64,000 nucleotides of DNA from Escherichia coli. Lineage in GTDB: Bacteria; Pseudomonadota; Gammaproteobacteria; Enterobacterales; Enterobacteriaceae. The position numbers and the translations under genes were made by a program. Positions 8,178 to 49,637 of the stretch are shown here, one piece after another; the first letter of the stretch is position 1; each line of letters begins with the position of its first letter. Under the pieces are notes generated by a model that was given only the letters and a program-made list of their open reading frames with translations, was not told where the DNA came from and searched no databases. Location of the stretch: the NCBI RefSeq assembly GCF_003991155.1, contig NZ_CP031293.1. One strand, 5' to 3'.

Positions 8178-9050
8178 TTACCAGCGACCGGACGCGCCGC
8201 CACCGCCAGAAGAACCGCCCCCGCCGCTAAATCCGCCGCCACTTGAGCCGCCACCGGAACCGCTGTTGTCTGAATGATAACTTCTACCAGATGCTTTTTT
8301 CTGAAGTACACATAAACAGGTAAAGACCATAATGGTGGTGAAAGTAAAAAAGAAGAAAAATACAGCAATGGAAAAAGTTTTATCGGAGAACAGGAATAAA
8401 TCTAAAAGATAGATTGCTGAAATACAGACACTGCTTTTACATGCGCGACAAAAATTACTGCCTTGATGAAAAAACCAGAAAGGGAAGAACATCACTGCAA
8501 ATACCCAAAAAATAGCAAAGTAATAATGATCACTGGAAGACGCTGATTCAATTTCTGAAGGATTAGCCGGATATTGGTGTTGTGAAGTGAGTTGGTTATT
8601 CAAAGCGTTTATAGCTAGCTCTAATCCCTGAGCTAATTTTTGTTGTTTAAATGCGGGTATCATGTTGCTACGGATGATATCTCCAGCCAGAGCATCGGTT
8701 ACCTTTTCTTCCAGCCCATAACCTACCTGGATGCGGACAGTGCGGTCCGACCAGGCAACAATGATCAGTATCCCATCATTGCGTTTGGCATCTCCTAAAC
8801 GCCAATTGTTAAAAACCCTTGTAGCATATTGTTCAATAGAATCGTCTCCGGTGGATGGCACTATTAATACAGCGACCTGTGCCCGTGTTTTTTGTGTAAT
8901 ATCCTGCAGCTGTTGTGTTAGTGATTGTTGTTCAGACGTGCTTAAGGTACCAGTAATATCGGTCACCTGTTGGCGCAGCTCCGGCACTGCAATTTGCTGG
9001 GTAAGCCCAGGAAGGCACCATAAAGTAAGTAGAAAAAAGATTAAGCGCAT
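8178..9050 (-). CDS. TPM-domain (YgcG-like) membrane protein, paralog C; ATG start at 9050 chosen over GTG at 9059
   Basis: Signal peptide, TPM/DUF477-like domain ([29 protein letters not shown]...), hydrophobic segment, C-terminal [25 protein letters not shown]. Confidence 0.8.
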
Positions 9051-9055
9051 AATGA

Positions 9056-10204
9056 TCACCAGCGTCCGGATGAACCGCCGCCTCCTGAAGAACCGCCACC
9101 ACCGCGGAAAGAATTTCTCGACGAAGAGCGAGAATGAGCATTACGATTCCCCGTTTTCCTGTTGCTTTTTTCTCCTGACCCCAGTTTAAGATTGCCAGTA
9201 AATTTGGCCACAATGATCAGCAGAACGATGCCAGCAATGGTTATTGGGCCGATAAAATGATCAATTAACCCAATAATTGTTGAGATGAATGCAATATCTT
9301 TATTACTGGCGAACACCAGGCACCATCCCACAACAATTATCAGCATCACGACAAACAATGAATTTCGTCCTGATTCAGGAAATTGCTGGGTCTTCTTTTG
9401 TTTTTTCACTTTAGTGTTTTTATTTTTGGGGGCCAGCATCATAGGAAATGCGCGGCACATATTAAAAACTACCGCGAGACGCTGCCAGCAGGTTGTTGCT
9501 AACAATAAACTAAAACAAACGATCGACACCCGCCGAATGATGACATCATCCTGAAAGAAGAAAAACCAGACCATAGGGGTAATCATCGATATCATCCATA
9601 TGCCAGGCCCAGGACGGCTGGTAAATCGCCAGAGGACAACGATGGCAACGATCATCAGCAGTGTCCAGGCAAGACATGGCAGCGAACGTTGTGGATTAGC
9701 AAACAGATGATTGGCTAAAGCATCCAAAGGGCTAAGGTTCGCTTTGATATGGGTAAACTGTGCGATGCTTTCAATTCCGCCCGTTAATCCAGCAAAGAGA
9801 TTGCTTTTTTCGAATTCTGGCTGCATATGGTAACGAACAATTTGCGCAGCTTGTTCTGGCGGCAACATCTGTTCCAGTCCATGTCCAATCTTCATTGACG
9901 CCAGCCCTTCCGGCCATACGACGAGAATTAAGATACCTTCGCCATATCGCTTCTCTCCAACGGGTTTCCAGTGATATAACCCGTATCTCTGCGAGGCTGC
10001 AAGTTTAATGTTTTTGCCCCCTGTAGTCGGCGTAACCAACACGGCCACCTGGAAGTGGTTTTGCTGCTCGAGAGTCTGTAATTGTTGATTTAAAGCAGTT
10101 TGTTCTTCTGTCGTTAATGTCCCGGTTAAGTCAGTTACTGAAGGCAATTGTTCAGCGAATACCTGAAAACCGCATAGCATCAGAAGTAAGAGAAAAATAC
10201 GCAT
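9056..10204 (-). CDS. TPM-domain membrane protein, paralog B, with extended polytopic membrane region
   Basis: 382 aa; signal peptide, TPM domain ([23 protein letters not shown]...), about 200 aa hydrophobic region, C-terminal [15 protein letters not shown]; RBS AAGGAA. Confidence 0.8.
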
Positions 10205-10218
10205 ATCAATTCCTTTTG

Positions 10219-11112
10219 TTACCAGCGTCCGGAAGCGCCACCGCCACCAGATGAACCGCCACCACCGCGGAAATTGTCATTGTCGAATGAAGAGGATGAC
10301 GATGACGAATAGTGGGAGGAAGAATTACTTCTTGTATGGCGTGATGGCTGGTTGGTATTACGCATCGAATCCCGAACCTTTTTGCCGAAGGGAGTAAAAG
10401 CGATGGCGACAGCCAGGAACGGTGTGGCGAAGCAGAGTAATGTTGCGAGCACTCCCCAGCTTCCGCTGAAACCTGCTATAGGTAAAACAAAGGCCAGTAC
10501 AATAGCTGCGAAGCAAATCAGTCCCAGCGTTTTGATATATCCTCTGGCAGAAATAAACGTCAGTATTATCGCCCAGACTAACAAAGCCCACCAACCGCTA
10601 AAGGGCAAAGGGTGATCGGTCGGTGTTATCGTTGCTGAATTATTCCCCGTCAGGCGACTTTCAATATCGTTGATCCCCTTTTGTAAACCACCAGCCAGGT
10701 CGCCTTTTTTAAATGCCGGAATAATACTGTTGCGAATAATTTTCCCGGACTGTGCATCCGTAATAATACCTTCCAGTCCGTAACCGATTTCAATACGCAC
10801 GGTATGATCCTGCCAGGCGACTAACAGTAGAACGCCATCATCGCGGTCTTTATCACCCGGTTTCCAGCTATCGAATACCCGCGTTGCGTACTGCTCGATG
10901 GTTTCATCGCCTGTTGTATCAACCACTAACACGACCAACTGTGCGTGGTTTTTTTGCGTCAGGGCTTTAATCTGGTTGGTCAGGGTGTTTACTTCGCTGT
11001 TTGTTAATGTGCCGGTTAAGTCATTCACATACTTGGGGGATTCAGGTACTGGAATTTGTGTGGCAAACACAGATGAACAGAAGAAAGCCATAAGGAAGAT
11101 AAAATTTCGCAT
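10219..11112 (-). CDS. TPM-domain membrane protein, paralog A; start at internal ATG (MRNFIFLMAFF signal peptide)
   Basis: TPM domain ([29 protein letters not shown]...), TM segments, Ser-rich linker, C-terminal [15 protein letters not shown]; 13 bp downstream of lemA stop. Confidence 0.8.
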   Translation of the reverse strand: MRNFIFLMAFFCSSVFATQIPVPESPKYVNDLTGTLTNSEVNTLTNQIKALTQKNHAQLVVLVVDTTGDETIEQYATRVFDSWKPGDKDRDDGVLLLVAWQDHTVRIEIGYGLEGIITDAQSGKIIRNSIIPAFKKGDLAGGLQKGINDIESRLTGNNSATITPTDHPLPFSGWWALLVWAIILTFISARGYIKTLGLICFAAIVLAFVLPIAGFSGSWGVLATLLCFATPFLAVAIAFTPFGKKVRDSMRNTNQPSRHTRSNSSSHYSSSSSSSFDNDNFRGGGGSSGGGGASGRW

Positions 11113-11125
11113 AGAACTTCCCCGC

Positions 11126-11728
11126 TTAATGCGCATTAGCATTCTGGCTAAAATCTATTGTTGGGGCTTTACTTACTGCGGTGACATCATCCGGCAAATA
11201 ATTTTTCTTTGGTGTGTAATCCATGACCTTTGCGGTTAATACAGCGGGGAATTTGCGGATAGTGACATTATATTGTTCAATGGCTTTAATATATCTTCCT
11301 CGCGCAACGGCAATTCTATTTTCACTTCCTTCGAGCTGTACCATTAAGTTTTGATAGAGTTCCTGAGCTTTTAACTCAGGGTAACGTTCACTAATTATCG
11401 TTAACTGACCGAGAGTGCGAGACACCTGCGCCTGGGCTTGTTGCCAGGCTTGTAATTTTTGCGCATCTCCCGGAGCTTGCTGAAGATCGCTACTGGCGCG
11501 ATTAGCCTGGCTACGTGCCAATGTTACGGCTTCCAGTACCTCTTGTTCATGGCTGGAATAACCTTTAATACTGGCGACAAGATTAGGAATAAGATCGGCG
11601 CGACGTTGATATTGATTCAATACCTCAGACCAGGAGGCGTTAACCTGCTCATCATAGGTTTGAATATCGTTATATCCACAGCCTGATAAATTGACAATAA
11701 ATATAATTACGATGAATATCCTGAGCAT
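11126..11728 (-). CDS. lemA: LemA-family lipoprotein/membrane protein
   Basis: 200 aa; N-terminal lipobox-like NLSGC; LemA-family sequence pattern; first gene of the lemA-TPM operon. Confidence 0.8.
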   Translation of the reverse strand: MLRIFIVIIFIVNLSGCGYNDIQTYDEQVNASWSEVLNQYQRRADLIPNLVASIKGYSSHEQEVLEAVTLARSQANRASSDLQQAPGDAQKLQAWQQAQAQVSRTLGQLTIISERYPELKAQELYQNLMVQLEGSENRIAVARGRYIKAIEQYNVTIRKFPAVLTAKVMDYTPKKNYLPDDVTAVSKAPTIDFSQNANAH

Positions 11729-11900: not shown

Positions 11901-12572
11901 ATGCAGTACCCGATTAACGAGATGTTCCAGACCCTGCAAGGTGAGGGTTACTTTACCGGCGTCCCCGCCATTTTTATTCGTTTACAGGGATGCCCGGTTG
12001 GCTGTGCCTGGTGCGACACCAAACACACCTGGGAAAAGCTTGAGGATCGGGAAGTTTCCCTTTTCAGCATTCTGGCGAAGACCAAAGAGAGTGATAAGTG
12101 GGGGGCTGCGAGCAGTGAAGATTTGCTGGCTGTCATTGGTCGCCAGGGATACACCGCGCGGCATGTGGTGATTACGGGTGGTGAGCCTTGCATTCATGAT
12201 TTGCTGCCACTGACTGACCTGCTCGAAAAGAACGGTTTTAGCTGCCAGATCGAAACCAGTGGTACTCATGAAGTACGCTGCACACCGAATACCTGGGTTA
12301 CCGTATCGCCAAAGCTGAATATGCGCGGCGGCTATGAAGTGTTGTCACAGGCACTGGAGCGAGCCAACGAAATCAAGCATCCAGTGGGACGCGTACGTGA
12401 TATCGAAGCACTGGATGAATTGCTTGCGACGCTGACCGATGATAAACCGCGAGTCATTGCACTTCAGCCAATTAGCCAGAAGGAAGATGCTACGCGTTTA
12501 TGTATCGATACCTGCATAGCGCGCAACTGGCGTTTGTCGATGCAGACACATAAATATTTGAATATTGCCTGA
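11901..12572 (+). CDS. queE: 7-carboxy-7-deazaguanine synthase (radical SAM)
   Basis: 223 aa; Cys motif CPVGCAWCDT; divergent from lemA operon. Confidence 0.93.
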   Translation: MQYPINEMFQTLQGEGYFTGVPAIFIRLQGCPVGCAWCDTKHTWEKLEDREVSLFSILAKTKESDKWGAASSEDLLAVIGRQGYTARHVVITGGEPCIHDLLPLTDLLEKNGFSCQIETSGTHEVRCTPNTWVTVSPKLNMRGGYEVLSQALERANEIKHPVGRVRDIEALDELLATLTDDKPRVIALQPISQKEDATRLCIDTCIARNWRLSMQTHKYLNIA

Positions 12573-12610
12573 TTTGATTATTCATCATTAATATTTAACG
12601 TTCAGAATGA

Positions 12611-12640
12611 AAATAATCGCCCCGTTTTACAGGGGCGATG
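12611..12640 (-). terminator. intrinsic terminator for scrR (hairpin also downstream of queE)
   Basis: ATCGCCCC-gttttaca-GGGGCGAT with T-run on the minus strand. Confidence 0.65.
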
Positions 12641-12656
12641 CAAGATAGTGACGGGA

Positions 12657-13664
12657 TTATCGGTAGCGTTTTTGTAGACTGGCTGGAAGATAACGCTGTA
12701 ATGGGGATGGCGTTTCACCTTCAATCAGTTGCGAAATAAGCTCAAAGCAGTGAAAAGCAAGTTGGCGATTATCCTGTTGTATTGTGTCGATTCTTACCGA
12801 AAGTGAATCATACAAGTAATGATCATCAAAACTCGCCAGGTGGATTTTACTGTCGAGTAAATTATATTGGCTCATATAGCGCAGAACGCCTTCCAGTAAT
12901 CCACAAGCGGCAGTGAATAAGGCTTTAGGGGGACGTCCTAAACGAGCGCATAGCGCGGCAAACATTTCATAGCCTGAGCTCGGATGATAATTACCGTGAA
13001 TAATCCATTCAGGTTGTAGCGTTACTCCGGCTTGCTGCAAGCCTTGTGTAAATCCTTCCAGTCGATCGCGAGTCGGTGACAAACGGGGTTGTCCCCCCAG
13101 AAAATAGAATTCATCCGGGTGACTCCGTGCAATATCTGCCACCAGAGCGGTGGTGGGAGAAACAGAGTCAGTAATGACCAATGGCAATGTGCTGCCGTTC
13201 ATGTGGCGATCGAACAACACAACAGGTAATTGCTCGCTAAGTTTTTGATAGTCATTATCATGCAGCATACTGGATGCGACGATTAACCCATCAACCTGGC
13301 GGGCAATCATATTGTTCACCACCATTGTTTCCTGTGAAGGATTTTCATCAGTACAGGATATGAGGAGTTGGACGCCCGCTTCCCGACACAATGTTTCCAG
13401 TTCATGGGAAAATACTGCAAATCCGTAGTTAGTGATTTCAGGAACGACGAGACCAATGGTATGACTGCGGTTGTCCCGTAATGAGCGGGCATGAATGCTG
13501 GGCTGATAATGCTGCTGTTGGGCAATACTCAGCACACGCTCACGCGTTTCCTGCGCAACACGTAACTCTTTGCCACGACCATTGAGAACCAGACTGGCGG
13601 TTGCTTTCGACACTCCCGCCAGTTCAGCAATGTCTTTAATAGTAACGCGTTTGGTTTTTCTCAC
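12657..13664 (-). CDS. scrR: LacI-family sucrose operon repressor
   Basis: 335 aa; N-terminal HTH ([23 protein letters not shown]); position at end of scr operon. Confidence 0.88.
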
Positions 13665-13689
13665 GACGAGGATCCGTAATTCAAAACCC

Positions 13690-15099
13690 TCATTCTACCA
13701 TGCAGGCGCGTAGCGACCAGTAGCGTAACGTGACGTCAGACTCACCCTGTAATATCAGCGAAGCTGGATGATGGGGAAAATAACGATTACTCATTACACC
13801 TTCACCATTATTGATGAATATCTCTACGCTGGAACTGTCACAGAGAATCTTCAGTGACGTTACGCTTCCTCGCCAGTAACGAGTTAGTTTCTCTTGCCCT
13901 GCAAGGCTTCTCCTCTGTAGTTGAATACCATCGTCATTAAGATGCAGTGCCAGCGCATTGCCAAAATTCAGATACAGCTCACCCGACGGAATGATGTCCA
14001 TTTCCAGGCGTTCAATTTCGACATGCGGCGCATGATCTGCTTTTCCTTGCCAGAAGTGTTCAGCTTCACGCAGTTGCGCGAGTTCCCTGATTGGCATCTG
14101 AAACAATTTTCCCTTCTGGAATGAGAGTTCGCGAAAACAGGTCATTTGATGCTGCCAATGATGCTTTCTGGTTGGTTGCAACATCTCTTCGCCATCAGGA
14201 ACCCCCATCCAGCCGACCAGCAATCGTCGCCCGTCCGGGGCTTCCATCGTCTGTGGTGCATAGAATTCAAATCCCGCATCCAGCTCTGAGAAAGCGCCAT
14301 GCGTAAATTTGCCTGTCTCGTAATCAAACTGTCCATGTAGCCAGGCGCAGGGATAAGTATTCAGATAGCGCTCATGTTCGCGCACCATTCCCTGGGGGCA
14401 ACAGAGGAGAATGTATTCACCATCAAGGGCGAAAAAATCAGGACATTCCCACATGTATCCTGCGTTATCTATTTCATTCAGACCGTTACCAGCAATTTCT
14501 CCATGAAAAGACCAGGTATAGAGATCGACAGAGGAATACAGCAGCACTTTCCCCCGTTTCTCTTTATCTTGCGCGCCAAGCACCATGTACCATTGGCTGT
14601 TGTGCTTCCAGACTTTTGGATCACGAACATGTCCGGTGTAACCATCAGGTAACGGTATGACAGGGCCTAGTTTATCAAACCCGCCCTGGTTATTTTCGGT
14701 GGCCAGGCATTGCCATGCCGTTCTGCTGCCATCATCAAACTTAACATTACCGGTATAGCAAAGTGTGAGAACGCCCTGATTATTAACCGCGCTTCCTGAG
14801 TAACAACCATTACGGTCGTACTCTTTATCGGGCATTAGCGCTAATGGTTCATGCTGCCAGTGCAATAAATCCGTCGAACTCCAGTGCCCCCAACATTTGT
14901 ACTTATGATCACAAGCCAGTGGATTCCACTGATAAAACAGATGATAGCGGCCTCCAGACCAGCAAAAGCCATTTGGATCGTTCATTAGTCCAGTGACGGG
15001 AGCGAGATGCCAACAAGGATAGTGGGCATCTGCCAGTACTTTGGACTGACCTTTCATCACTGCCTGTAAAATCGCGGGCATTTGTGAAGGCATCGACAT
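13690..15099 (-). CDS. scrB: sucrose-6-phosphate hydrolase (GH32 invertase)
   Basis: 469 aa; GH32 motif MNDPNGF, WECPD; start overlaps scrA stop. Confidence 0.92.
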
Positions 15100-16469
15100 T
15101 ACTCCTCGTCCGTTTTGTATTTGAGTAATAAAGAGAGGCTAAAAGCGACAGCGAAAGCAATCACCATTCCAATAATATAATTAACCAACGATGTTGGCTG
15201 AACGATTGCCATGCCGGGTATTGCGGTCAGACCAACGGCAGTCATATAAACGTGAACAGAGACAACCCAGGCACCGCCGGCAGCGCCACCAATTAAGGCC
15301 GCAATAAAAGGTTTAACAAAACGAAGGTTGATACCAAAAATAGCGGCTTCAGTAATCCCTAACATTGCGGAAAAGGCCGAGGGTAGGGTGATTGCTTTAA
15401 TTTTTGTATCTTTGGTTTTAAACCATACCGCCAGACATGCACCGCCTTGCGCAACGTTTGCCATTGCCCAAATAGGCAGCAGGAAATTAACACCGATTGC
15501 AGGGTTACCTAAAAGTCCTGCTTCAATTGCGTGGAAGCTATGATGAATACCCGTAATAACAATCGCTGAATATAGTCCGCCGAATAACAACCCTGCTAAC
15601 CAGCCTGCGTGTGCAATCAGCGTGCTGAGAACGAAAGAGATACCGTCACCTAACGCTCGTCCTGCCGGACCAATAATCAAAAGAGCGATAAAGCCAGAAA
15701 TGACGACAGTCAGAAATGGCGTCAGAATGAGATCCAGAGCATCAGGGATAAACCTGCGTAACTGTTTTTCCACTATGCTCATAAACCATACTGCCAGAAG
15801 TACGGGGAAAACCGTTCCCTGATAGCCAATCATGGCGATTTCAAAACCGAAGAAGTTCATTGTCTGAAATCCCGCAGCAACGCCCCAGGCATTTGTGAGT
15901 GCCGGGTGAGTCAGAATCCCTCCTAATGTCGCGCCAAGATAAGGATTTCCACCAAATTCACGAGCAGCAGTAAAGCCAATAAGGATGGGGAGAATAATAA
16001 ATGCGGCTGAACTGCACATATCCAGCAGGATATAAATCGCATTATCGGCATTCACCCAGCCATATATTTTCACCATTCCCAGAAGCCCCATTAATAAACC
16101 AGAAGCAACAATGGCTGGAATGATGGGGACAAAAATATTAGAAAGTAGCCGTGCTATTCGCTGAAAAGGATTGAGTTTTTGAGCGGCGAGTCGAGCGGTA
16201 TCTGCTTTACTGGATTCGCTAATACCTGCAACCTGAATAAAGGCAGCATAGACTTTATTAACCACGCCGGTGCCAAAGATGATTTGCATTTGCCCTGAAT
16301 TACGAAAACAACCTTTCACTCCATCAATCTGGCCAATGGCATGTTGATCGGCAAGTGTGTCGTCAACCAGTACCAGCCGTAGGCGAGTGGCGCAATGTGC
16401 TGCACTGGTGATGTTCTCCTTACCACCTAATAAAGGAAGCAACGATTGGGCGATTTTATCGAAATCCAT
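15099..16469 (-). CDS. scrA: PTS sucrose-specific EIIBC component
   Basis: 456 aa; EIIB Cys motif (AAHCATRLRL) followed by EIIC membrane domain. Confidence 0.92.
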   Translation of the reverse strand: MDFDKIAQSLLPLLGGKENITSAAHCATRLRLVLVDDTLADQHAIGQIDGVKGCFRNSGQMQIIFGTGVVNKVYAAFIQVAGISESSKADTARLAAQKLNPFQRIARLLSNIFVPIIPAIVASGLLMGLLGMVKIYGWVNADNAIYILLDMCSSAAFIILPILIGFTAAREFGGNPYLGATLGGILTHPALTNAWGVAAGFQTMNFFGFEIAMIGYQGTVFPVLLAVWFMSIVEKQLRRFIPDALDLILTPFLTVVISGFIALLIIGPAGRALGDGISFVLSTLIAHAGWLAGLLFGGLYSAIVITGIHHSFHAIEAGLLGNPAIGVNFLLPIWAMANVAQGGACLAVWFKTKDTKIKAITLPSAFSAMLGITEAAIFGINLRFVKPFIAALIGGAAGGAWVVSVHVYMTAVGLTAIPGMAIVQPTSLVNYIIGMVIAFAVAFSLSLLLKYKTDEE

Positions 16470-16529
16470 ATAACCCTCTAATTCATTGTTATTTCAGTAA
16501 AAGCCTCACATCCGTGAGGCTGTCTGGTA

Positions 16530-18071
<1,542 letters not shown>

Positions 18072-18091
18072 TTATAAAAATTGCTAAAATG

Positions 18092-18105
18092 CTAAACCGG
18101 TTTAG
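18092..18105. promoter_or_regulatory. candidate ScrR operator (perfect palindrome CTAAACCGGTTTAG) upstream of scrY
   Basis: 14-bp perfect palindrome in scrK-scrY intergenic region. Confidence 0.6.
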
Positions 18106-18150
18106 GTGTTGATAATAAAGCTGACTTTTTAGCCAGAGCAATTATTTTCG

Positions 18151-18164
18151 CTAAACCGATTTAG
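18151..18164. promoter_or_regulatory. candidate second ScrR operator (CTAAACCGATTTAG)
   Basis: near-perfect copy of the palindrome 59 bp from the first. Confidence 0.55.
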
Positions 18165-18217
18165 TAAATGTGACAGGCACGACAAATCGGGTTACAGATA
18201 CAACAGCAGGATCACTA

Positions 18218-19135
18218 TTATGAAGGGAGATCGTGTTGTCGGGGTAAGGCGGTCATCGCGCCTTTAGCCGTGGTCGCCAGAGCACCACAAATCTGAGCTT
18301 GTGCAATGATTCGTTCAAGCTGTCTGGTATTTGTTGGTATTCCAGAATCAGCCAGACCTGCAAGTAATCCAGCGACAAAAGCATCTCCTGCCCCGGTCGT
18401 ATCGACGACAGAAACAGGTTTGGCGGGATAGTGGATAAACTGCCCCTGAAAATACACAAGTACGCCATTTTTTCCTTGTGTAATAAGCAATAAAGTCAAC
18501 GAATAACGTTGTACTAATGAATATGCGCCTTGCTGAACCTGGCTTTCGCCACTGATGAATAGCAACTCTTCTTCGGACAATTTAGCGATATTCGCCAGCG
18601 AAAGTGCGCGATCAAGGTATTTCCTTAATAGCGCTTCACTCTGCCAGAGATCGCTGCGGATATTGGGATCAAAACTGATGTTTCCGCCAGCCTGACGTAT
18701 TTTCTCCATAGCCAGAAATGCGGTACTTCGGGAAGGTTCTGCACTGAGCGCAATGGAACAAAGATGGAGCCATTCACCCGGCCCAAATGCAGGAAGGTCA
18801 CCAGGTTGTAAAAAAAGATCGGCACTTGGGCGTACCATAAAGGTAAAGTTTCTTTCTCCTTGCTCATCAAGTCCTACAGCCACAATTGAGGTGCGTTGTT
18901 GAGGATCAAGAGACATATAACGTGTATCAACATTTTCTGTACTCAGTGTCTGATACATAAAGCGACCGAAAGGATCATCGCCAACTTTGCCAATAAAGGC
19001 ACTTTTCCCCCCCAGCCTTGCGATACCGACTGCAACATTAGCAGGCGCCCCGCCAGGACACTGTAGTAGTCTCCCCTGGCTTTCGGGTAATAAATCAACA
19101 ACCGCATCACCGAGTACCCATACTCTTGCGCTCAT
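18218..19135 (-). CDS. scrK: fructokinase (PfkB family)
   Basis: 305 aa; PfkB/ribokinase motifs (DTTGAGDAF); first gene of scr cluster; RBS GGAG. Confidence 0.9.
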   Translation of the reverse strand: MSARVWVLGDAVVDLLPESQGRLLQCPGGAPANVAVGIARLGGKSAFIGKVGDDPFGRFMYQTLSTENVDTRYMSLDPQQRTSIVAVGLDEQGERNFTFMVRPSADLFLQPGDLPAFGPGEWLHLCSIALSAEPSRSTAFLAMEKIRQAGGNISFDPNIRSDLWQSEALLRKYLDRALSLANIAKLSEEELLFISGESQVQQGAYSLVQRYSLTLLLITQGKNGVLVYFQGQFIHYPAKPVSVVDTTGAGDAFVAGLLAGLADSGIPTNTRQLERIIAQAQICGALATTAKGAMTALPRQHDLPS

Positions 19136-19166
19136 AAAGGCTCCAATATACTAATTGCTAAACTAA

Positions 19167-19180
19167 TTAAATCGGTTTAG
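19167..19180. promoter_or_regulatory. candidate ScrR operator upstream of scrK (TTAAATCGGTTTAG)
   Basis: third copy of the same half-site pattern in the scrK promoter region. Confidence 0.5.
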
Positions 19181-19299
19181 CAATTAAAGCATAAACGCTG
19201 CTCAGGAGAGAACAATATTCAGCAGTGGTTACCCGGTATTTTGTGGTGGAAACGTGAATATGCCGGGATTAATCATCTACCCGGCACTGTTTATCTCAC

Positions 19300-20778
19300 T
19301 TACGCATTCGACCAGCTCTGGATCGAATCTTCATTCCCCAGCTCACCATGCATCACTTCATACGATTTTTTCAGGATCACATCAGTGTGCTTGGTTAGGT
19401 CTTTGAAAATGCCTTTATTCATCGCGTCGTAGCGTTTGGCATTGCTCTCAATCGGTATGAAGATATCTTTCACGCGAACCATTTTATCGACAGCCGTTGC
19501 GTAATCCGGGTATAGCCCCAGACCTACCGCCGTATTGATCGCTGCCCCCAGACTTGCACAACCATTAATGGCGTTACGGCGTGCCGGAAGGTTGAACACG
19601 TCGGCAAAAATCTGCATAAACAGATCGCTGTTCGAACCGCCGCCAGTAATGATCACATGCTTTGCAAAGTGATTCATTTCATTACACATATTGTCGTAAT
19701 TGTTCTTCAGCGTCAGCGCCACGCTTTCCAGTATCGAACGATATATCCATGCGTAATCCATGCTGGAATCAAAGCCGATCATAATCCCGCGTTTGTATGG
19801 TTCCCACGGATTGGTCAGCCAGTCCAGCACCGTCATCAGACCATTACAGCCAGGCGGCACACAAGACGCTTTTTTGTTGAGCAAATCTTCCGGTGAAAGA
19901 TCCTGTGCTTTGGCATCCTGAATTAACGACTCGCCTAGCATGTCGCGTAGCCAGCTCACCGTCCACATGCCTTTGCGAATACCGTAACCTTCATACAGCA
20001 AGGTTTGCGGAATAGAAGACATAATCGGCCAGTACGCTACCGGATCTTTCGGCAGTGCTTTACCGTTCATCATCAGCGCGATGTAGGTGCCAAGAGAAAT
20101 CACCGCCGTTTCATCATCCAGTAATCCGGCTCCCAGAGCTTCTACCGGTTTATCACTGGTGGTACAAACAACCGGCAGCCCAGCCGGGAAATGTGTCGCC
20201 AGCGCGGCTTGACGAGTGATATGCCCAAGAACAGTGCCCGGCATTTGCACATCAAAAAGCATCTGTCGGGGAATATTAAACTTCTCCATTACCGCGGTAT
20301 CTTCGCTCCATGCCCAGGTCTTATAATCCACCGGCCACTGACCAAAATAGTTGGCGATATTGTCTTTAAACTCGCCGGTTAAGCGATGCGTCAGATAACC
20401 TGAAAAAGAGGTGACATATGCCACGTCAGGATTCGTATGTTCGTAAGGGCGTGTAACGCGTGCATCCTGCCAGCTAATCAACGGCGCAGCTGGCGTGCCA
20501 TCGGCTTTCAATAACGCACGGCAGCAACGGATGGATCCCAGACCAATACCGACAATATCTTCTTTATTTCCGGCAAACTGACTCATCAAATCGTGACCGG
20601 CAAAACATAATGATGCCCATAAATCGTCGTCAGGATGTTCTGCGGTATCGGCATCTGGCGTGTGCATCGGCTGCAATAAGCCTTTGCCTTCGCAAACCAC
20701 ATTACCTTCCAGATCGTACATCACCACTTTTGTGCTCTGACTTCCGCCATCAATCCCTATGATGTATTTTTTCGACAT
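19300..20778 (-). CDS. ygcE: FGGY-family carbohydrate kinase
   Basis: 492 aa; FGGY N-terminal motif (IGIDGGSQSTKVV) and C-terminal domain. Confidence 0.88.
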   Translation of the reverse strand: MSKKYIIGIDGGSQSTKVVMYDLEGNVVCEGKGLLQPMHTPDADTAEHPDDDLWASLCFAGHDLMSQFAGNKEDIVGIGLGSIRCCRALLKADGTPAAPLISWQDARVTRPYEHTNPDVAYVTSFSGYLTHRLTGEFKDNIANYFGQWPVDYKTWAWSEDTAVMEKFNIPRQMLFDVQMPGTVLGHITRQAALATHFPAGLPVVCTTSDKPVEALGAGLLDDETAVISLGTYIALMMNGKALPKDPVAYWPIMSSIPQTLLYEGYGIRKGMWTVSWLRDMLGESLIQDAKAQDLSPEDLLNKKASCVPPGCNGLMTVLDWLTNPWEPYKRGIMIGFDSSMDYAWIYRSILESVALTLKNNYDNMCNEMNHFAKHVIITGGGSNSDLFMQIFADVFNLPARRNAINGCASLGAAINTAVGLGLYPDYATAVDKMVRVKDIFIPIESNAKRYDAMNKGIFKDLTKHTDVILKKSYEVMHGELGNEDSIQSWSNA

Positions 20779-34358: not shown

Positions 34359-35093
34359 ATGTCCAAACTCGATCTAAACGCCCTGAACGAACTGCCGAAG
34401 GTAGATCGCATTCTGGCGCTGGCGGAAACTAACGCCGAACTGGAAAAACTGGACGCTGAAGGCCGCGTTGCCTGGGCGCTGGATAATCTGCCTGGTGAAT
34501 ATGTACTTTCTTCCAGCTTTGGCATTCAGGCGGCGGTGAGCCTGCATCTGGTGAATCAGATTCGCCCGGATATTCCAGTGATCCTCACCGATACGGGTTA
34601 CTTGTTCCCGGAAACCTACCGCTTTATTGACGAGTTAACGGACAAACTCAAACTCAACCTGAAAGTGTACCGCGCTACCGAAAGCGCCGCCTGGCAGGAA
34701 GCACGTTACGGAAAACTATGGGAGCAGGGCGTTGAAGGCATTGAAAAGTACAATGACATCAACAAAGTCGAACCGATGAACCGGGCGCTGAAAGAACTAA
34801 ACGCGCAAACGTGGTTTGCTGGCCTGCGCCGTGAACAATCCGGCAGCCGCGCCAATTTACCGGTGCTGGCAATTCAGCGTGGCGTATTTAAAGTGCTGCC
34901 GATTATCGACTGGAATAACCGAACGATATATCAGTACCTGCAAAAACATGGCCTGAAATATCACCCATTATGGGACGAAGGATATTTATCGGTCGGTGAT
35001 ACCCATACAACCCGTAAATGGGAACCCGGCATGGCGGAAGAAGAAACGCGTTTCTTTGGCTTGAAAAGGGAATGTGGATTACACGAAGGGTAA
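34359..35093 (+). CDS. cysH: phosphoadenosine phosphosulfate reductase
   Basis: 244 aa from internal ATG with RBS GAGGAA; C-terminal ECGLH motif. Confidence 0.95.
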
Positions 35094-35112
35094 ATATTGC
35101 TGCTTAAATTAA

Positions 35113-35150
35113 ACGCCTCTGTCTGAAAAGATGGGGGCGTTTTTATTTTG
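35113..35150 (+). terminator. probable cysH terminator
   Basis: AACGCC...GGCGTT stem followed by TTTTTATTTT. Confidence 0.5.
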
Positions 35151-35357
35151 CGAGCAGGATTCCTGATTTTAAACGTGAACGCCGCAGGAAGAATCAACAG
35201 GCATAGAATGGCGTTGGGTGCTTGAGGCTGTCTGGCGTTAAGCATTCGCGAGGTTCCAGATGGACAAAAGCCCCAGGCGATATTTCTATCAACCTGAGGC
35301 CAGCGTTCGAACCTAAGCAATTCGGATGTTAGTCTCTTCTTTGCAGGGAGGCAAGAC

Positions 35358-35510
35358 ATGCTGACAAAATATGCCCTTGTGGCAATCATCGTACTGTGTT
35401 GTACAGTACTGGGATTCACGTTGATGGTAGGCGACTCGTTGTGTGAGTTGAGTATCAGAGAACGTGGTATGGAGTTTAAGGCAGTTCTCGCTTACGAATC
35501 GAAGAAGTAG
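35358..35510 (+). CDS. hokX: Hok/Gef-family type I toxin (small membrane peptide), 50 aa
   Basis: [50 protein letters not shown]: N-terminal TM helix, conserved LCE and AYES motifs of Hok; RBS GGGAGG; not in ORF track (below size cutoff); symbol by position next to cysH, from memory. Confidence 0.8.
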
Positions 35511-35515
35511 CCACC

Positions 35516-35580
35516 ACGCGGGGTAAAACCCCGCGTACTGAATTGTGATTGTTTGGCCTCCTGCACCCCTTTTTTATACT
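35516..35580 (+). promoter_or_regulatory. hok mRNA 3' fold-back element and terminator
   Basis: CGCGGGGTAAAACCCCGCG hairpin; GCCTCCTGC (35556-35564) near-complementary to the hok SD region GCAGGGAGGC (35343-35352); followed by T-run. Confidence 0.6.
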
Positions 35581-35635
35581 CTGTTTCTGGTGGCATTGAT
35601 TTCCTGCAGGCAAGGGAGTAATCATTTCAAACCCA

Positions 35636-36673
35636 TTAAGATGCCTTCGCCAGCTCCTTCACCAACGGTAGCATTATCCGCATAACATCACGGCAGCGAC
35701 GTTCTATTCTTCCTGGAAGTGCCTTATCAATATGCTGTTGATTATCCAGTCTTACGTCATGCCAGCTATTTCCTGCAGGGAATGCGGCTGTTTTTGCGCG
35801 TTGCTGATAACCATCCTTATTCCCAAGATTCCAGTTTGTCGCTTCCACCGAAAGTACAGCAATGCCCGCTTTGTCGAATATTTCTGCGTCATTACAACAC
35901 CCAGTGCCTTTCGGATAGTTTTTATTCAAACCTGGATTTGTGGTGGCGGCAATTCCATGACTGCGGGCAATTGCCAGCGCCCGGTCGCGCGTTAATTTCC
36001 TTACTGCTTCAGGTGTTTTTACGCCACTGTTGAAATACAGCTTATCGCCAACAATCAGATTATCGAGATTAATCACCAATAAAGTATTTTTCTTTTCGGT
36101 ATCACTCATGCGCTTGAGTAAATTCTCAGCGCCTAATTTCCCTTCTTCTTCACCACTGGTTGCCACAAAACGAATGCCATATTCGGTTGGCGTATTTTTC
36201 AGGCGTTCAGCCAGCTCCAGCATGACACCTAAACCTGCGGCGTTATCATCCATTCCTTGTAACGTCAGCCCGCCGAGATTGGCATCGGCGTCAGCATCGC
36301 TCAGCGGGGCGTAAGTATCCAGATGCGCCATAATGATGATCTGCTGCGGCGCTTTGCCTTCATGAGCGGCAATCACCGTACTTCCCGTCACGTTATGCCA
36401 GCTCTTGCGATTATCGCGGGCGGTATAAATATACCGACTATTAAATGTCCGAATATCACTGCGATAACCCATTTGCTGAAACTGTTGGCGAATATAATCG
36501 GCAGATAACATTTCTGCAGGAGTTCCGGTCATGCGTCCCGGAAAGAAAGTAGCAATATGTCGTGCCTGGGTATTAGCAAAATCGCCAGGTTTAGGTGACG
36601 AGGCGTGTACGGGGAGAATAAAGCATACGCCGAGCGCCAGGGCAGCGGTACGGTGGCGCAATGCGGAAAACAT
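35636..36673 (-). CDS. iap: alkaline phosphatase isozyme conversion aminopeptidase
   Basis: 345 aa; signal peptide, M28-family peptidase sequence. Confidence 0.9.
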   Translation of the reverse strand: MFSALRHRTAALALGVCFILPVHASSPKPGDFANTQARHIATFFPGRMTGTPAEMLSADYIRQQFQQMGYRSDIRTFNSRYIYTARDNRKSWHNVTGSTVIAAHEGKAPQQIIIMAHLDTYAPLSDADADANLGGLTLQGMDDNAAGLGVMLELAERLKNTPTEYGIRFVATSGEEEGKLGAENLLKRMSDTEKKNTLLVINLDNLIVGDKLYFNSGVKTPEAVRKLTRDRALAIARSHGIAATTNPGLNKNYPKGTGCCNDAEIFDKAGIAVLSVEATNWNLGNKDGYQQRAKTAAFPAGNSWHDVRLDNQQHIDKALPGRIERRCRDVMRIMLPLVKELAKAS

Positions 36674-37834: not shown

Positions 37835-39262
37835 ATGAACACCGCACTTGCACAACAAATCGCCAATGAAGGCGGCGTCGAAGCCTGGATGATTGCGCAA
37901 CAACATAAAAGCCTGCTGCGTTTTCTGACCTGTGGTAGCGTCGATGACGGCAAAAGTACCCTGATTGGTCGCCTGCTGCACGATACCCGCCAAATCTACG
38001 AAGATCAGCTCTCATCGCTGCATAACGACAGTAAGCGTCACGGCACCCAGGGCGAAAAGCTGGATCTGGCGCTTCTGGTGGATGGTCTGCAAGCCGAGCG
38101 TGAACAGGGCATTACTATTGATGTGGCCTACCGCTATTTCTCTACCGAGAAGCGTAAATTTATTATCGCCGACACACCTGGGCACGAGCAGTACACCCGC
38201 AATATGGCGACCGGCGCATCGACATGCGAACTGGCGATCTTACTGATCGACGCCCGTAAAGGCGTGCTCGATCAAACCCGTCGTCACAGTTTTATCTCCA
38301 CACTGTTGGGGATCAAACATCTGGTCGTGGCGATCAACAAAATGGATCTGGTGGATTACAGTGAAGAGACGTTCACCCGTATTCGTGAAGATTATCTGAC
38401 TTTTGCCGGGCAGCTGCCGGGTAATCTGGATATCCGCTTTGTGCCGCTCTCTGCACTGGAAGGCGACAACGTGGCTTCGCAAAGTGAAAGTATGCCGTGG
38501 TACAGCGGTCCGACACTGCTCGAAGTGCTGGAAACCGTGGAGATCCAGCGAGTGGTGGATGCCCAGCCAATGCGCTTCCCGGTGCAGTACGTTAATCGCC
38601 CGAATCTCGATTTTCGTGGCTACGCCGGAACGCTGGCATCCGGTCGCGTGGAAGTCGGGCAACGTGTCAAAGTGCTGCCCTCTGGTGTGGAATCAAACGT
38701 CGCGCGGATCGTGACCTTTGATGGCGATCGCGAAGAAGCCTTTGCCGGAGAAGCGATCACCCTGGTGCTGACGGATGAAATCGACATTAGCCGTGGCGAT
38801 CTGCTGCTGGCGGCAGACGAAGCGTTACCGGCTGTGCAGAGCGCGTCGGTGGATGTGGTATGGATGGCGGAACAGCCGCTTTCCCCGGGCCAGAGTTATG
38901 ACATCAAAATTGCCGGTAAGAAGACGCGTGCTCGTGTTGATGGCATTCGTTATCAGGTTGATATTAATAACCTTACCCAACGCGAGGTTGAAAACCTGCC
39001 GCTGAACGGCATCGGCCTGGTGGATCTCACTTTTGACGAGCCACTGGTGTTAGATCGTTATCAGCAAAATCCGGTGACCGGTGGGCTGATTTTTATCGAT
39101 CGCCTGAGCAATGTGACCGTGGGTGCCGGTATGGTGCACGAGCCAGTTAGCCAGGCAACTGCTGCGCCATCTCAATTCAGTGTATTCGAACTTGAATTGA
39201 ATGCTCTGGTTCGCCGCCACTTTCCGCACTGGGGCGCGCGCGATTTGCTGGGAGATAAATAA
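37835..39262 (+). CDS. cysN: sulfate adenylyltransferase subunit 1 (GTPase)
   Basis: 475 aa; GTP-binding motifs ([18 protein letters not shown]). Confidence 0.96.
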
Positions 39263-44500: not shown

Positions 44501-45640
44501 ATGAGCGCGGGAAGCCCAAAATTCACCGTTCGCCGCATTGCGGCTTTGTCACTGGTTTCGCTATGGCTGGCAGGCTGTTCTGACACTTCAAATCCACCGG
44601 CCCCGGTCAGCTCCGTTAATGGCAATGCGCCTGCAAATACCAATTCTGGTATGTTGATTACGCCGCCGCCGAAAATGGGGACGACGTCTACAGCTCAGCA
44701 ACCGCAAATTCAGCCGGTACAGCAGCCACAAATTCAGGCCACTCAACAACCGCAAATCCAGCCGGTGCAGCCAGTAGCTCAGCAGCCGGTACAGATGGAA
44801 AACGGACGCATCGTCTATAACCGTCAGTATGGGAACATTCCGAAAGGCAGTTATAGCGGCAGTACCTATACAGTGAAAAAAGGCGACACACTTTTCTATA
44901 TCGCCTGGATTACTGGCAACGATTTCCGTGACCTTGCTCAGCGCAACAATATTCAGGCACCATACGCGCTGAACGTCGGTCAGACCTTACAGGTGGGGAA
45001 TGCTTCCGGTACGCCAATCACTGGCGGAAATGCCATTACCCAGGCCGACGCAGCAGAGCAAGGAGTTGTGATCAAGCCTGCACAAAATTCCACCGTTGCT
45101 GTTGCTTCGCAACCGACAATTACGTATTCTGAGTCTTCGGGTGAACAGAGTGCTAACAAAATGTTGCCGAACAACAAGCCAACTGCGACCACGGTCACAG
45201 CGCCTGTAACGGTACCAACAGCAAGCACAACCGAGCCGACTGTCAGCAGTACATCAACCAGTACGCCTATCTCCACCTGGCGCTGGCCGACTGAGGGCAA
45301 AGTGATCGAAACCTTTGGCGCTTCTGAGGGGGGCAACAAGGGGATTGATATCGCAGGCAGCAAAGGACAGGCAATTATCGCGACTGCAGATGGACGCGTT
45401 GTTTATGCCGGTAACGCGCTGCGCGGCTACGGTAATCTGATTATCATCAAACATAATGATGATTACCTGAGTGCCTACGCCCATAACGACACAATGCTGG
45501 TCCGGGAACAACAAGAAGTGAAGGCGGGGCAAAAAATAGCAACCATGGGTAGCACCGGAACCAGTTCAACACGCTTGCATTTTGAAATTCGTTACAAGGG
45601 GAAATCCGTAAACCCGCTGCGTTATTTGCCGCAGCGATAA
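44501..45640 (+). CDS. nlpD: murein hydrolase activator lipoprotein NlpD
   Basis: 379 aa; lipobox LAGCS, LysM domain, Q/P-rich repeats, C-terminal M23 (LytM) domain. Confidence 0.94.
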
Positions 45641-46815: not shown

Positions 46816-47223
46816 CTATTTGCTCATCATCTTGCGCACCAGCTGCATAAACAGCTCCTGCTCTTCTGCACTCAAACGCCCCAAAAATTCCTCATCCACA
46901 CTGTCACCAATCGGTATCGCCGCAGCAAGTACCTTTTCTCCTTCGGCAGTCAGCCAGACAAAGCGTCGCCGCTTATCAGCAGAGTCATGTTCTCGTCTGA
47001 CTAAGCCACGATTTTCCATTCGTGCCAACATTTCTGCCAGCGTTGCTTTGGTGCTGACGGCTGCTTCTATCAGTGCCACCTGTTCGATACCAGGTTTATC
47101 AGCAATGGCGCGCATCACCGCGTACTGTGGTTTGGTCAGATCAGGTAACTCGTGCTGCCAGCGAGCCGTGTGCTGCTGAAAAAGCTGTCGTAACTGATGG
47201 AACGCTTTATTTCGTAACGCCAT
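46816..47223 (-). CDS. MarR-family transcriptional regulator; start at internal ATG (MALRNK...)
   Basis: winged-helix MarR sequence; RBS GGAG 7 nt upstream of ATG at 47223; divergent from decarboxylase operon. Confidence 0.8.
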   Translation of the reverse strand: MALRNKAFHQLRQLFQQHTARWQHELPDLTKPQYAVMRAIADKPGIEQVALIEAAVSTKATLAEMLARMENRGLVRREHDSADKRRRFVWLTAEGEKVLAAAIPIGDSVDEEFLGRLSAEEQELFMQLVRKMMSK

Positions 47224-47246
47224 GTAAACTCCGGGCAAACTATCTG

Positions 47247-47261
47247 CCGCTATCATAGCGG
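47247..47261. promoter_or_regulatory. palindrome CCGCTA-tca-TAGCGG in the MarR/decarboxylase divergent promoter region (candidate operator)
   Basis: 6-bp inverted repeat arms directly upstream of the MarR-family gene. Confidence 0.4.
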
Positions 47262-47369
47262 TTTTTCAGTGACGCAGGGGATGTTGTTACTTTTCAGTGC
47301 TTGCCGCGATGAGAACAGAGGCGTATTTTAATAATAACGTTCGTGTACGAACAATTAAGAGAATTAACA

Positions 47370-47963
47370 ATGAGACTGATCGTCGGGATGACAGGGGCCA
47401 CCGGAGCGCCTCTTGGTGTGGCATTACTGCAAGCGCTGCGGGAGATGCCGAATGTCGAGACTCATCTGGTGATGTCGAAGTGGGCGAAAACCACCATTGA
47501 ACTGGAAACGCCTTACAACGCCCGCGATGTTGCTGCCCTCGCAGACTTCTGCCATAACCCGGCGGATCAGGCCGCAACCATCTCCTCAGGTTCCTTTCGT
47601 ACCGACGGCATGATCGTTATTCCGTGCAGTATGAAAACGCTCGCCGGTATCCGTGCCGGTTACGCCGATGGCCTGGTGGGGCGCGCGGCGGACGTCGTGC
47701 TCAAAGAAGGCCGCAAACTGGTGCTGGTGCCGCGTGAAATGCCGCTTAGCACAATCCATCTCGAAAATATGCTCGCACTTTCGCGCATGGGCGTGGCGAT
47801 GGTGCCGCCGATGCCTGCCTTTTATAACCATCCCGAAACGGTAGATGACATTGTCCACCACGTGGTAGCCCGCGTGCTGGATCAATTTGGCCTCGAACAT
47901 CCTCACGCCAGGCGCTGGCAAGGATTGCCGCAGGCCCGGAATTTTTCTCAGGAGAATGAATAA
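47370..47963 (+). CDS. ecdB: UbiX-family flavin prenyltransferase (decarboxylase B subunit)
   Basis: 197 aa from MRLIVGMTGATGA; UbiX/Pad1 family; symbol by analogy with the E. coli O157 locus, from memory. Confidence 0.85.
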   Translation: MRLIVGMTGATGAPLGVALLQALREMPNVETHLVMSKWAKTTIELETPYNARDVAALADFCHNPADQAATISSGSFRTDGMIVIPCSMKTLAGIRAGYADGLVGRAADVVLKEGRKLVLVPREMPLSTIHLENMLALSRMGVAMVPPMPAFYNHPETVDDIVHHVVARVLDQFGLEHPHARRWQGLPQARNFSQENE

Positions 47964-49390
47964 TGGCATTTGATGATTTACGCAGCTTTTTACAGGCGCT
48001 CGACGACCATGGGCAATTGCTGAAAATCAGCGAAGAGGTGAACGCGGAACCGGATCTGGCAGCAGCAGCTAACGCCACCGGGCGTATCGGCGACGGCGCG
48101 CCCGCGCTGTGGTTTGATAATATTCGCGGCTTTACCGATGCCCGCGTGGCAATGAACACCATCGGTTCCTGGCAGAACCACGCGATTTCCCTCGGCCTGC
48201 CGCCAAATACCCCGGTTAAAAAACAGATTGATGAGTTTATCCGCCGCTGGGATAACTTCCCGATTGCCCCGGAGCGCCGCGCCAATCCGGCCTGGGCGCA
48301 GAACACCGTTGATGGCGACGAGATCAACCTGTTCGATATCCTGCCGCTGTTTCGTTTAAACGATGGCGATGGCGGTTTCTATCTCGACAAAGCGTGCGTG
48401 GTTTCCCGCGATCCGCTTGATCCGGATAACTTCGGCAAGCAGAACGTCGGCATCTACCGTATGGAAGTGAAGGGTAAGCGTAAGCTCGGTCTGCAACCGG
48501 TGCCGATGCACGATATCGCCCTGCATCTGCATAAAGCGGAAGAGCGCGGTGAAGATCTGCCGATTGCCATCACCCTGGGTAACGACCCGATCATCACCCT
48601 GATGGGGGCCACGCCGCTGAAATACGATCAGTCCGAGTACGAAATGGCGGGCGCGCTGCGCGAAAGTCCGTACCCGATCGCCACCGCTCCGCTGACCGGT
48701 TTTGATGTGCCGTGGGGCTCGGAGGTGATCCTCGAAGGAGTCATCGAAAGCCGCAAACGCGAGATTGAAGGGCCATTCGGTGAGTTTACCGGCCACTACT
48801 CCGGCGGGCGCAATATGACCGTCGTGCGCATTGATAAAGTCTCTTATCGCAGCAAACCCATTTTTGAATCGCTCTATCTCGGGATGCCGTGGACGGAAAT
48901 CGACTACCTGATGGGGCCAGCCACCTGTGTGCCGCTGTATCAACAACTGAAAGCTGAGTTCCCGGAAGTGCAGGCGGTAAACGCCATGTACACCCACGGC
49001 CTGCTGGCGATTATCTCCACCAAAAAACGCTACGGTGGCTTTGCCCGCGCGGTGGGCCTCCGTGCGATGACCACGCCGCACGGTCTGGGCTACGTGAAGA
49101 TGGTGATTATGGTCGATGAAGACGTTGATCCGTTCAACCTGCCGCAGGTGATGTGGGCGCTCTCTTCGAAAGTGAACCCGGCAGGGGATTTGGTGCAGTT
49201 GCCGAATATGTCCGTGCTGGAACTCGACCCTGGCTCAAGTCCGGCGGGGATCACCGACAAGCTGATTATCGACGCCACCACGCCTGTCGCCCCGGACAAC
49301 CGTGGTCACTACAGTCAGCCGGTGGTGGATTTACCGGAAACCAAAGCCTGGGCTGAAAAACTGACCGCTATGCTGGCCGCACGTCAATAA
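47963..49390 (+). CDS. ecdC: UbiD-family reversible hydroxyarylic acid decarboxylase, C subunit
   Basis: 475 aa; UbiD-family sequence; translationally coupled to upstream gene. Confidence 0.85.
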   Translation: MAFDDLRSFLQALDDHGQLLKISEEVNAEPDLAAAANATGRIGDGAPALWFDNIRGFTDARVAMNTIGSWQNHAISLGLPPNTPVKKQIDEFIRRWDNFPIAPERRANPAWAQNTVDGDEINLFDILPLFRLNDGDGGFYLDKACVVSRDPLDPDNFGKQNVGIYRMEVKGKRKLGLQPVPMHDIALHLHKAEERGEDLPIAITLGNDPIITLMGATPLKYDQSEYEMAGALRESPYPIATAPLTGFDVPWGSEVILEGVIESRKREIEGPFGEFTGHYSGGRNMTVVRIDKVSYRSKPIFESLYLGMPWTEIDYLMGPATCVPLYQQLKAEFPEVQAVNAMYTHGLLAIISTKKRYGGFARAVGLRAMTTPHGLGYVKMVIMVDEDVDPFNLPQVMWALSSKVNPAGDLVQLPNMSVLELDPGSSPAGITDKLIIDATTPVAPDNRGHYSQPVVDLPETKAWAEKLTAMLAARQ

Positions 49391-49400
49391 GGAGAACAAG

Positions 49401-49637
49401 ATGATTTGTCCACGTTGTGCCGATGAACAGATTGAAGTGATGGCGAAATCGCCGGTAAAAGATGTCTGGACGGTATATCAGTGCCAGCATTGCCTTTATA
49501 CCTGGCGCGATACCGAACCGCTGCGCCGCACCAGCCGCGAACATTATCCCGAAGCGTTCCGCATGACGCAGAAAGATATTGATGACGCGCCGATGGTGCC
49601 GAGCATCCCGCCGCTGCTGGCGGAAGGTAAGTGTTAA
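49401..49637 (+). CDS. ecdD: decarboxylase small subunit D (zinc-ribbon like)
   Basis: 78 aa; CPRC...CQHC Cys pairs; position after the UbiD-like gene. Confidence 0.75.
   Translation: MICPRCADEQIEVMAKSPVKDVWTVYQCQHCLYTWRDTEPLRRTSREHYPEAFRMTQKDIDDAPMVPSIPPLLAEGKC

Follow-up and report, generated by a model that had tools for sequence, protein, structure and literature searches.

A cas-less allele of the cysH–iap CRISPR-I site of Escherichia coli, with an intact hokX/sokX unit and a 48-bp segment specific to cas-less alleles

The CRISPR-I site of Escherichia coli, located between cysH and iap, exists in alternative forms. Nine CRISPR-I arrangements are defined in the text of Almendros et al. 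(2014, mBio, PMC3903273), where hok/sok is described in all strains but the carriers of cas-E2, and the IG3 segment in E1 and cas-less strains. The cas-less form, arrangement B (cysH–hok/sok–IG3–iap), is derived in that text from a cas-E1 allele by 'deletion of the IG6-IG3 intervening region', and the E. coli type I-E system is treated there as largely silent and dispensable. Arrangement B, as that text describes it, is the equivalent of the 'Region B without CRISPR-Cas components' of Slukin et al. (2025, PMC12736100), who studied 237 uropathogenic (UPEC) strains: Region B (iap–cysH) is without CRISPR-Cas components in 54% of them (Groups V–IX), cas genes are lacking in 110 of the 237, hok and sokX are found in 90% of strains and scr genes occupy Region C in 47%. 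That about one-fifth of complete E. coli genomes lack the I-E system at cysH–iap has been on record since 2010–2014; most B2 strains are among them, and so, apparently, is the lineage studied here. The cas-less cysH–iap state described below is a re-observation of this known polymorphism, and the hokX locus and the scr insertion have also been published already; one point of mild evolutionary interest is a 48-bp allele-specific segment.

In the window (the whole 64-kb stretch of DNA that was analysed), cysH and iap are separated by 542 bp, at 35094–35635 (Table 1). Both flanking genes scored far above the curated NCBIfam cutoffs in a profile search. The only gene annotated between them in the RefSeq record of a chromosome identical to the window (NZ_CP029747.1) is Hok/Gef, and no transposase open reading frame (ORF) is present in 35094–35635. 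An earlier note on this DNA had described a gap of about 540 bp filled by the hok locus; the measured length agrees, and the content is borne out by the Hok/Gef ORF and by a match to the Rfam sok family. We conclude with high confidence that the window carries a cas-less CRISPR-I allele, composed of cysH, an intact hokX/sokX unit, the 48-bp segment and iap, for which arrangement B is the best fit and which appears to be an old haplotype of a presence/absence polymorphism.

Table 1 Features of the cysH–iap interval and of the scr insertion, in window coordinates.
Feature	Position	Strand	Basis
scrK-scrY-scrA-scrB-scrR sucrose regulon, 6.7 kb, in the ygcE–queE site	12575–19294	-	RefSeq annotation
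cysH (PAPS reductase), left flank of the CRISPR-I site	34359–35093	+	NCBIfam TIGR02057, 347 bits; RefSeq annotation of window-identical record
Terminator-like hairpin followed by T-run, directly after cysH	35111–35142	+	Consensus scan; kept in K-12 and O157
hok mRNA leader / sok target region	35216–35373	+ (hok-sense)	Rfam 'sok' RF01794, full-length match 1–157
Candidate SokX antisense RNA, about 55 nt	~35319–35265	-	Inferred by reading the sequence
hokX toxin ORF, 50 aa, intact	35358–35510	+	Pfam PF01848
GC-rich hairpin at the hok 3' end, ACGCGGGG-TAAAA-CCCCGCGT	35516–35536	+	Sequence; IS186/IS421 insertion target in other strains
3' end of the hok transcription unit, GGCCTCCTGCACCCC and T-run	35537–35576	+	O157 alignment; RNA fold
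48-bp segment specific to cas-less alleles, TACTCTGTTTCTGGTGGCATTGATTTCCTGCAGGCAAGGGAGTAATCA	35577–35624		Absent from K-12/O157 loci
Right flank of the CRISPR-I site: iap and its 11-bp 3' flank	35625–36673	-	NF007568; alignments
iap	35636–36673	-	NCBIfam NF007568, 705 bits

The annotated gene order in K-12 is cysH, cas3, casABCDE, cas1, cas2, CRISPR and iap, in agreement with the type I-E layout given in the earlier note, and O157:H7 has a K-12-like layout with another cas variant and with hok kept. The window has the chromosomal site and its flanks in common with these I-E loci (cas-E2 in K-12 and cas-E1 in O157:H7); both loci also have the cysH terminator and sokX, and the cas-E1 (O157-type) allele has hokX and its 3' end as well. 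Homology to cas-E1 alleles extends from cysH through the whole hok unit and ends at 35574–35576, after the hok T-run, whereas homology to K-12 ends at 35360, so that K-12 has sokX without hok. Homology to all cas-bearing alleles restarts at 35625, 11 bp past the iap stop codon. When the full 9.5–10 kb cysH–iap intervals were compared with the window by blastn, only their first 267 bp (K-12) and 481 bp (O157) matched, corresponding to the sok/hok part; in the alignment with K-12, which had been proposed as a check, homology is confined to those 267 bp. The window has none of the eight cas genes of the K-12 and O157:H7 loci, and neither their leader and array nor their degenerate terminal repeat. 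The description of the strain as 'retaining' the toxin locus holds relative to O157-type strains; K-12 itself has sokX alone, without hok. A weak local similarity was also observed between the end of the hok unit and the arrays of K-12 and O157: positions 35511–35548 (the hok 3' hairpin and the next 16 nt) can be aligned with the last canonical I-E repeat and the conserved terminal spacer, 28 of 38 positions being in agreement, a score reached by only 1–3 of 500 dinucleotide shuffles. This similarity may be due to chance among GC-rich palindromes, or may be a trace of module integration.

No component of a CRISPR-Cas system was detected in the window. The 29-bp I-E repeat (GWGTTCCCCGCGCCAGCGGGGATAAACCG), an I-E variant, the K-12 degenerate terminal repeat and the I-F repeat had no match on either strand of the 64 kb with up to 3 mismatches, nor with up to 9 mismatches of 28–29 positions; degenerate repeat remnants were rejected on this basis. 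Tandem Repeats Finder returned no array and no tandem or spaced repeats of the CRISPR kind. A tblastn search with 16 Cas proteins (eight each from the K-12 and O157 I-E operons) yielded only noise across the window (best E = 0.018), with nothing in 35094–35635, and no cas gene is annotated across the 64 kb of the window-identical RefSeq record. There is likewise no homology within the window to the leader and array of K-12 or O157. The constituents of a type I-E locus (cas3, cse1, cse2, cas7, cas5, cas6e, cas1 and cas2, and a repeat array with leader) are therefore not found in the window. These searches agree with the earlier statements that the window contains no 29-bp I-E repeat, which extends to as many as 9 mismatches, and that the strain has no CRISPR-Cas system at cysH–iap, given the lack of repeats, of similarity to Cas proteins and of K-12 or O157 homology beyond the hok part; within 35094–35635, neither an I-E repeat nor a cas remnant was seen. 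As it stands, the cysH–iap site of the window would be able neither to acquire spacers nor to interfere with invading DNA.

The hokX/sokX locus appears to be the sole functional unit in the cysH–iap interval. The hokX ORF matches PF01848 over the full length of the model (E = 6.3e-10; residues 5–46 against model positions 1–42 of 42), identifying it as a Hok/Gef-family ORF. The NCBIfam HokA and Hok models match it below their cutoffs, and because the HokA score (53 bits) is below the curated cutoff of 89, we regard hokX as a member of the Hok family and not as HokA. The protein is WP_000956458.1, 'Hok/Gef family protein', and is identical in sequence in O157:H7 and B2 strains; the name hokX has been used at cysH–iap in the B2 strain NRG857c (PMC7232551). 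The RF01794 match scores 110 bits against a gathering score of 59, and the conserved hok leader and Sok target structure is thus present. Read from the sequence, the leader 5' end (GGGTGC-TTGAGGC, 35216–35228) is complementary to the 3' end of the hok transcript. In the predicted fold of the hok RNA (-119 kcal/mol, z = -2.6), GGCCTCCTGCACCCC and the T-run pair with the surroundings of the hok Shine–Dalgarno sequence and with the 5' end. A candidate SokX promoter lies on the minus strand, with a -35 element TTGCCT (35354–35349), a 17-nt spacer and a -10 element TAACAT (35331–35326); it has 8 of 12 consensus matches and falls below the threshold of the consensus scan. It is accompanied by a candidate terminator on the same strand, a hairpin at 35300–35270 followed by TTTT, again read from the sequence.

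Compared with described hok/sok type I toxin–antitoxin loci (hok/sok of plasmid R1, the chromosomal hokA–E, and hokX of E. coli B and NRG857c), the window has in common the 50-aa PF01848 toxin and the RF01794 leader, as well as the complementarity for 5'/3' fold-back and a putative antisense promoter and terminator at the expected place. If the locus works as hok/sok does, its hok mRNA, stable and folded, would be kept untranslated by a short-lived antisense SokX RNA. Unlike in plasmid R1-type hok/sok, the frame upstream of hokX does not overlap the hok start: this would-be mok (35222–35332) ends 26 nt before it, so a canonical mok coupling frame, and with it R1-like translational coupling, is not evident. 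In E. coli ETEC1738, whose allele is likewise cas-less, the hok 3' hairpin is interrupted by an IS4-like IS421 (IS186-type) element flanked by a duplication of GGGGTAAAACCC. This insertion fits the IS186 hotspot that the text of Almendros et al. (2014, PMC3903273) places in GC-rich sequence at the IG2–IG3 boundary.

Between the end of the hok unit and the iap flank lies the 48-bp segment. In local alignments with five targets from the K-12 and O157 intervals, it showed no similarity above that of shuffled sequences (p = 0.05–0.73). We accordingly rejected a decayed repeat, a leader fragment and a cas fragment as candidates for it. Among 5,426 complete E. coli genomes, cysH, hok and iap are contiguous in 1,135, the junction of the window is present in 1,129 and the 48-bp segment in 1,128 (in 1,116 of these at 99% identity or more). 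As the segment has no counterpart in cas-bearing alleles and the set that carries it equals in size the set with the cas-less junction, it serves as a marker specific to the empty allele. B2 strains, for example 536, clone D i2 and ST131, have an identical junction. The whole cysH–iap interval, by comparison, is found at 99.8–100% identity in only 43 complete genomes, and its identity to B2 alleles is 96–97% (96.7% for strain 536). Over its entire length, the window matches the chromosome of E. coli 2016C-3878 (NZ_CP029747.1, assembly GCF_003204955.1; human rectal swab, USA) at 100% identity.

The organization of this allele corresponds to arrangement B as it is set out in the text of Almendros et al. 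(2014). hok/sok adjoins cysH, as seen from PF01848, RF01794 and the RefSeq Hok/Gef coding sequence. An IG3-like segment is present at the 3' side of hok, where 35537–35576 aligns with O157 downstream of hok before homology stops; this stretch is probably the IG3 of Almendros et al., a mapping that follows from the wording of that paper's text. IG4, IG5, the leader, the cas-E genes, the array and insertion sequences are absent. We see no structural difference from arrangement B as described there, and the haplotype of the window is a minor sequence variant of it; the 48-bp segment delimited here goes unmentioned in that paper's text.

For comparison outside E. coli, a scan anchored on iap was carried out with one genome per species, giving 80 loci. 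iap adjoins cysH directly (<300 bp) at 34 of them, and a further seven have the order iap–hok–cysH without cas genes or repeats (E. whittamii, Escherichia sp. E1V33, E. coli E69, three Atlantibacter and a Lelliottia). Another insert, again without cas genes or repeats, is present at 10 loci, and the state downstream of iap is unresolved at 15. An I-E operon with an array is found at 10 loci, including those of E. albertii, Salmonella diarizonae and some Citrobacter, Klebsiella, Raoultella and Enterobacter, and I-E repeats without cas genes at four. Orphan I-E repeats of this kind (2–7 copies, between iap and cysH) were seen in an E. coli lineage, in Superficieibacter and in two uncultured Enterobacteriaceae. 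These loci are real scars of cas loss, in contrast to the scar-free allele of the window. Orthologues of the 48-bp segment that differ from it by a few substitutions occur in E. whittamii, Escherichia sp. E1V33 and E. coli E69; because of these differences, an exact 20-mer taken from the segment gave no hits in a search of one genome per species.

iap and cysN differ in how they relate to the species tree. The iap of the window is 95.0% identical to that of K-12, 93.5% to O157, 90.3% to AR_0013 and 95.7% to E. whittamii (90.3–95.4% to other E. coli overall). By contrast, cysN (37835–39262) follows the species tree, with 96.6–96.8% identity to E. coli and 92% to E. whittamii. The divergence of iap beside the CRISPR-I site suggests recombination or trans-species polymorphism, and since iap loses the species signal here, exchange by recombination is plausible. 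The I-E module (an E1 or E2 cas operon, leader and array) is a presence/absence polymorphism at a conserved chromosomal site. Its alternative alleles are inherited, with homologous recombination through the cysH/hok and iap flanks as the probable route of exchange.

The remaining canonical CRISPR sites of E. coli were inspected as well. In K-12, the ygcE–queE site holds the second annotated I-E array (CRISPR-II). In the window, the scr genes lie between queE (11901–12572) and ygcE (19300–20778), and the 1.37 kb of K-12 ygcE–queE intergenic DNA has no counterpart. An scr locus at the queE/CRISPR2.2 position is described in B2 and F strains (PMC11251922; Trevino-Quintanilla 2007), and the block in the window, which replaces the CRISPR-II DNA, shows no difference from it; as a hint that the strain belongs to phylogroup B2 or F, this is only suggestive. 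At the I-F site, clpA–infA, infA, serW and clpA are adjacent in NZ_CP029747.1, with a serW–clpA gap of 283 bp, and no cas-F genes or array, and hence no I-F locus, are present there. A solitary degenerate I-F repeat (GTTCACTGCCGTACAGGCAGATAAAATG, 5 mismatches at the 3' end) is located on the minus strand of this gap. A search for I-E and I-F repeats at other loci, as the earlier note had advised, thus returned none at ygcE–queE and this single degenerate copy at clpA–infA of NZ_CP029747.1. The strain is CRISPR-Cas-free at all three canonical E. coli loci (cysH–iap, ygcE–queE and clpA–infA, the last from NZ_CP029747.1). For annotation, the strain should be treated as CRISPR-Cas-negative at these loci, and CRISPR typing consequently fails on it.

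Could the missing system be elsewhere, or have been lost in the assembly? The earlier note expected defence to be provided elsewhere, and the sites inspected here are the three canonical loci. Relocation of a CRISPR-Cas system (I-E, I-F or another type) to a non-canonical chromosomal site or a plasmid nevertheless seems improbable to us, given that cysH–iap, ygcE–queE and clpA–infA are all empty and that cas-less strains are common (the 110 of 237 UPEC strains cited above; PMC12736100). An assembly artefact, whether a chimeric window or a cas operon and array that were collapsed or dropped, can be dismissed with near certainty. Short-read assemblies can in general collapse CRISPR arrays, and nothing else was found in favour of an artefact; against it, a complete circular chromosome matches the window at 100% identity, 43 independent complete genomes carry the interval at 99.8–100% identity, the junction is common to more than 1,100 genomes and a collapsed array would leave at least one repeat, of which there is none. 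The more substantial question is how the empty allele arose. In the published parsimony scenario, the change from arrangement A to arrangement B in the text of Almendros et al. (2014), an O157-like cas-E1 module would have been lost recently through a single clean deletion reaching from the 3' end of hok to the iap flank. Consistent with this, the left breakpoint falls where the sequence common with E1 alleles ends, cas genes are said to be often lost in E. coli (PMC2886076), and the orphan arrays without cas genes beside iap in other taxa indicate that loss happens. We consider a recent deletion unlikely all the same. The junction contains 48 bp without counterpart in the K-12 and O157 alleles; some 1,128 cas-less genomes all have them, and virtually no cas-bearing genome does (1,128 against 1,129 with the junction). 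The same 48 bp are orthologous yet diverged in E. whittamii and two other Escherichia lineages, and no repeat scar remains, in contrast to the orphan-array loci. A simple deletion of an O157-type allele is incompatible with the extra 48 bp; as the orthologues have diverged, any deletion would have to be ancient and to have started from an allele that differed from those of today, and only this form of the scenario is kept.

Since the 48 bp are orthologous but diverged across Escherichia species, the empty haplotype would be old: it looks like an old haplotype and not a recent deletion scar, its age and its polarity both being deduced from comparison. That a strain lacks the I-E system need not mean that it was lost, as the empty allele carries 48 bp seen in no cas-bearing allele. 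From orthology of the 48 bp alone, one cannot tell which came first, the empty state or the I-E module. Taken together, the conservation of the segment and the predominance of empty iap–cysH junctions across Enterobacteriaceae speak for an empty state that is old and may be ancestral. We tentatively entertain, at less than even confidence, a reversal of the published deletion scenario, in which empty cysH–hokX–48 bp–iap would be the ancestral Escherichia state and the I-E module would have been inserted later, replacing the 48 bp. If the empty state is ancestral, the similarity between the hok hairpin and the last repeat would be a trace of module integration, and both alleles would persist as a trans-species polymorphism at a recombination hotspot. 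The argument for an old or ancestral allele is comparative, and cross-species recombination could confound it, iap being without species signal here.

Finally, other variable features were observed in the window and in the identical chromosome. Relative to the K-12 gene order, NZ_CP029747.1 has a large chromosomal inversion with breakpoints at lysO|yohP and aqpZ|dusC, and transposases of the IS110 family (and IS3) are located at both ends. Beside CRISPR-II, another variable spot lies between queE and eno (8178–11728 of the window), where a LemA gene and three TPM-domain genes, one of them a truncated pseudogene, are found at the position of yqcG and ygcG in K-12. The mutS–rpoS stretch is a known polymorphic region in E. 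coli, and within it, between pphB and rpoS (46816–49637), the window encodes a MarR-family regulator and the B, C and D subunits of a hydroxyarylic acid decarboxylase. Inside nlpD, a 24-nt tandem repeat (TCAGCAACCGCAAATTCAGCCGG, 3.2 copies, 44695–44771) probably corresponds to the Gln/Pro-rich linker of the protein.
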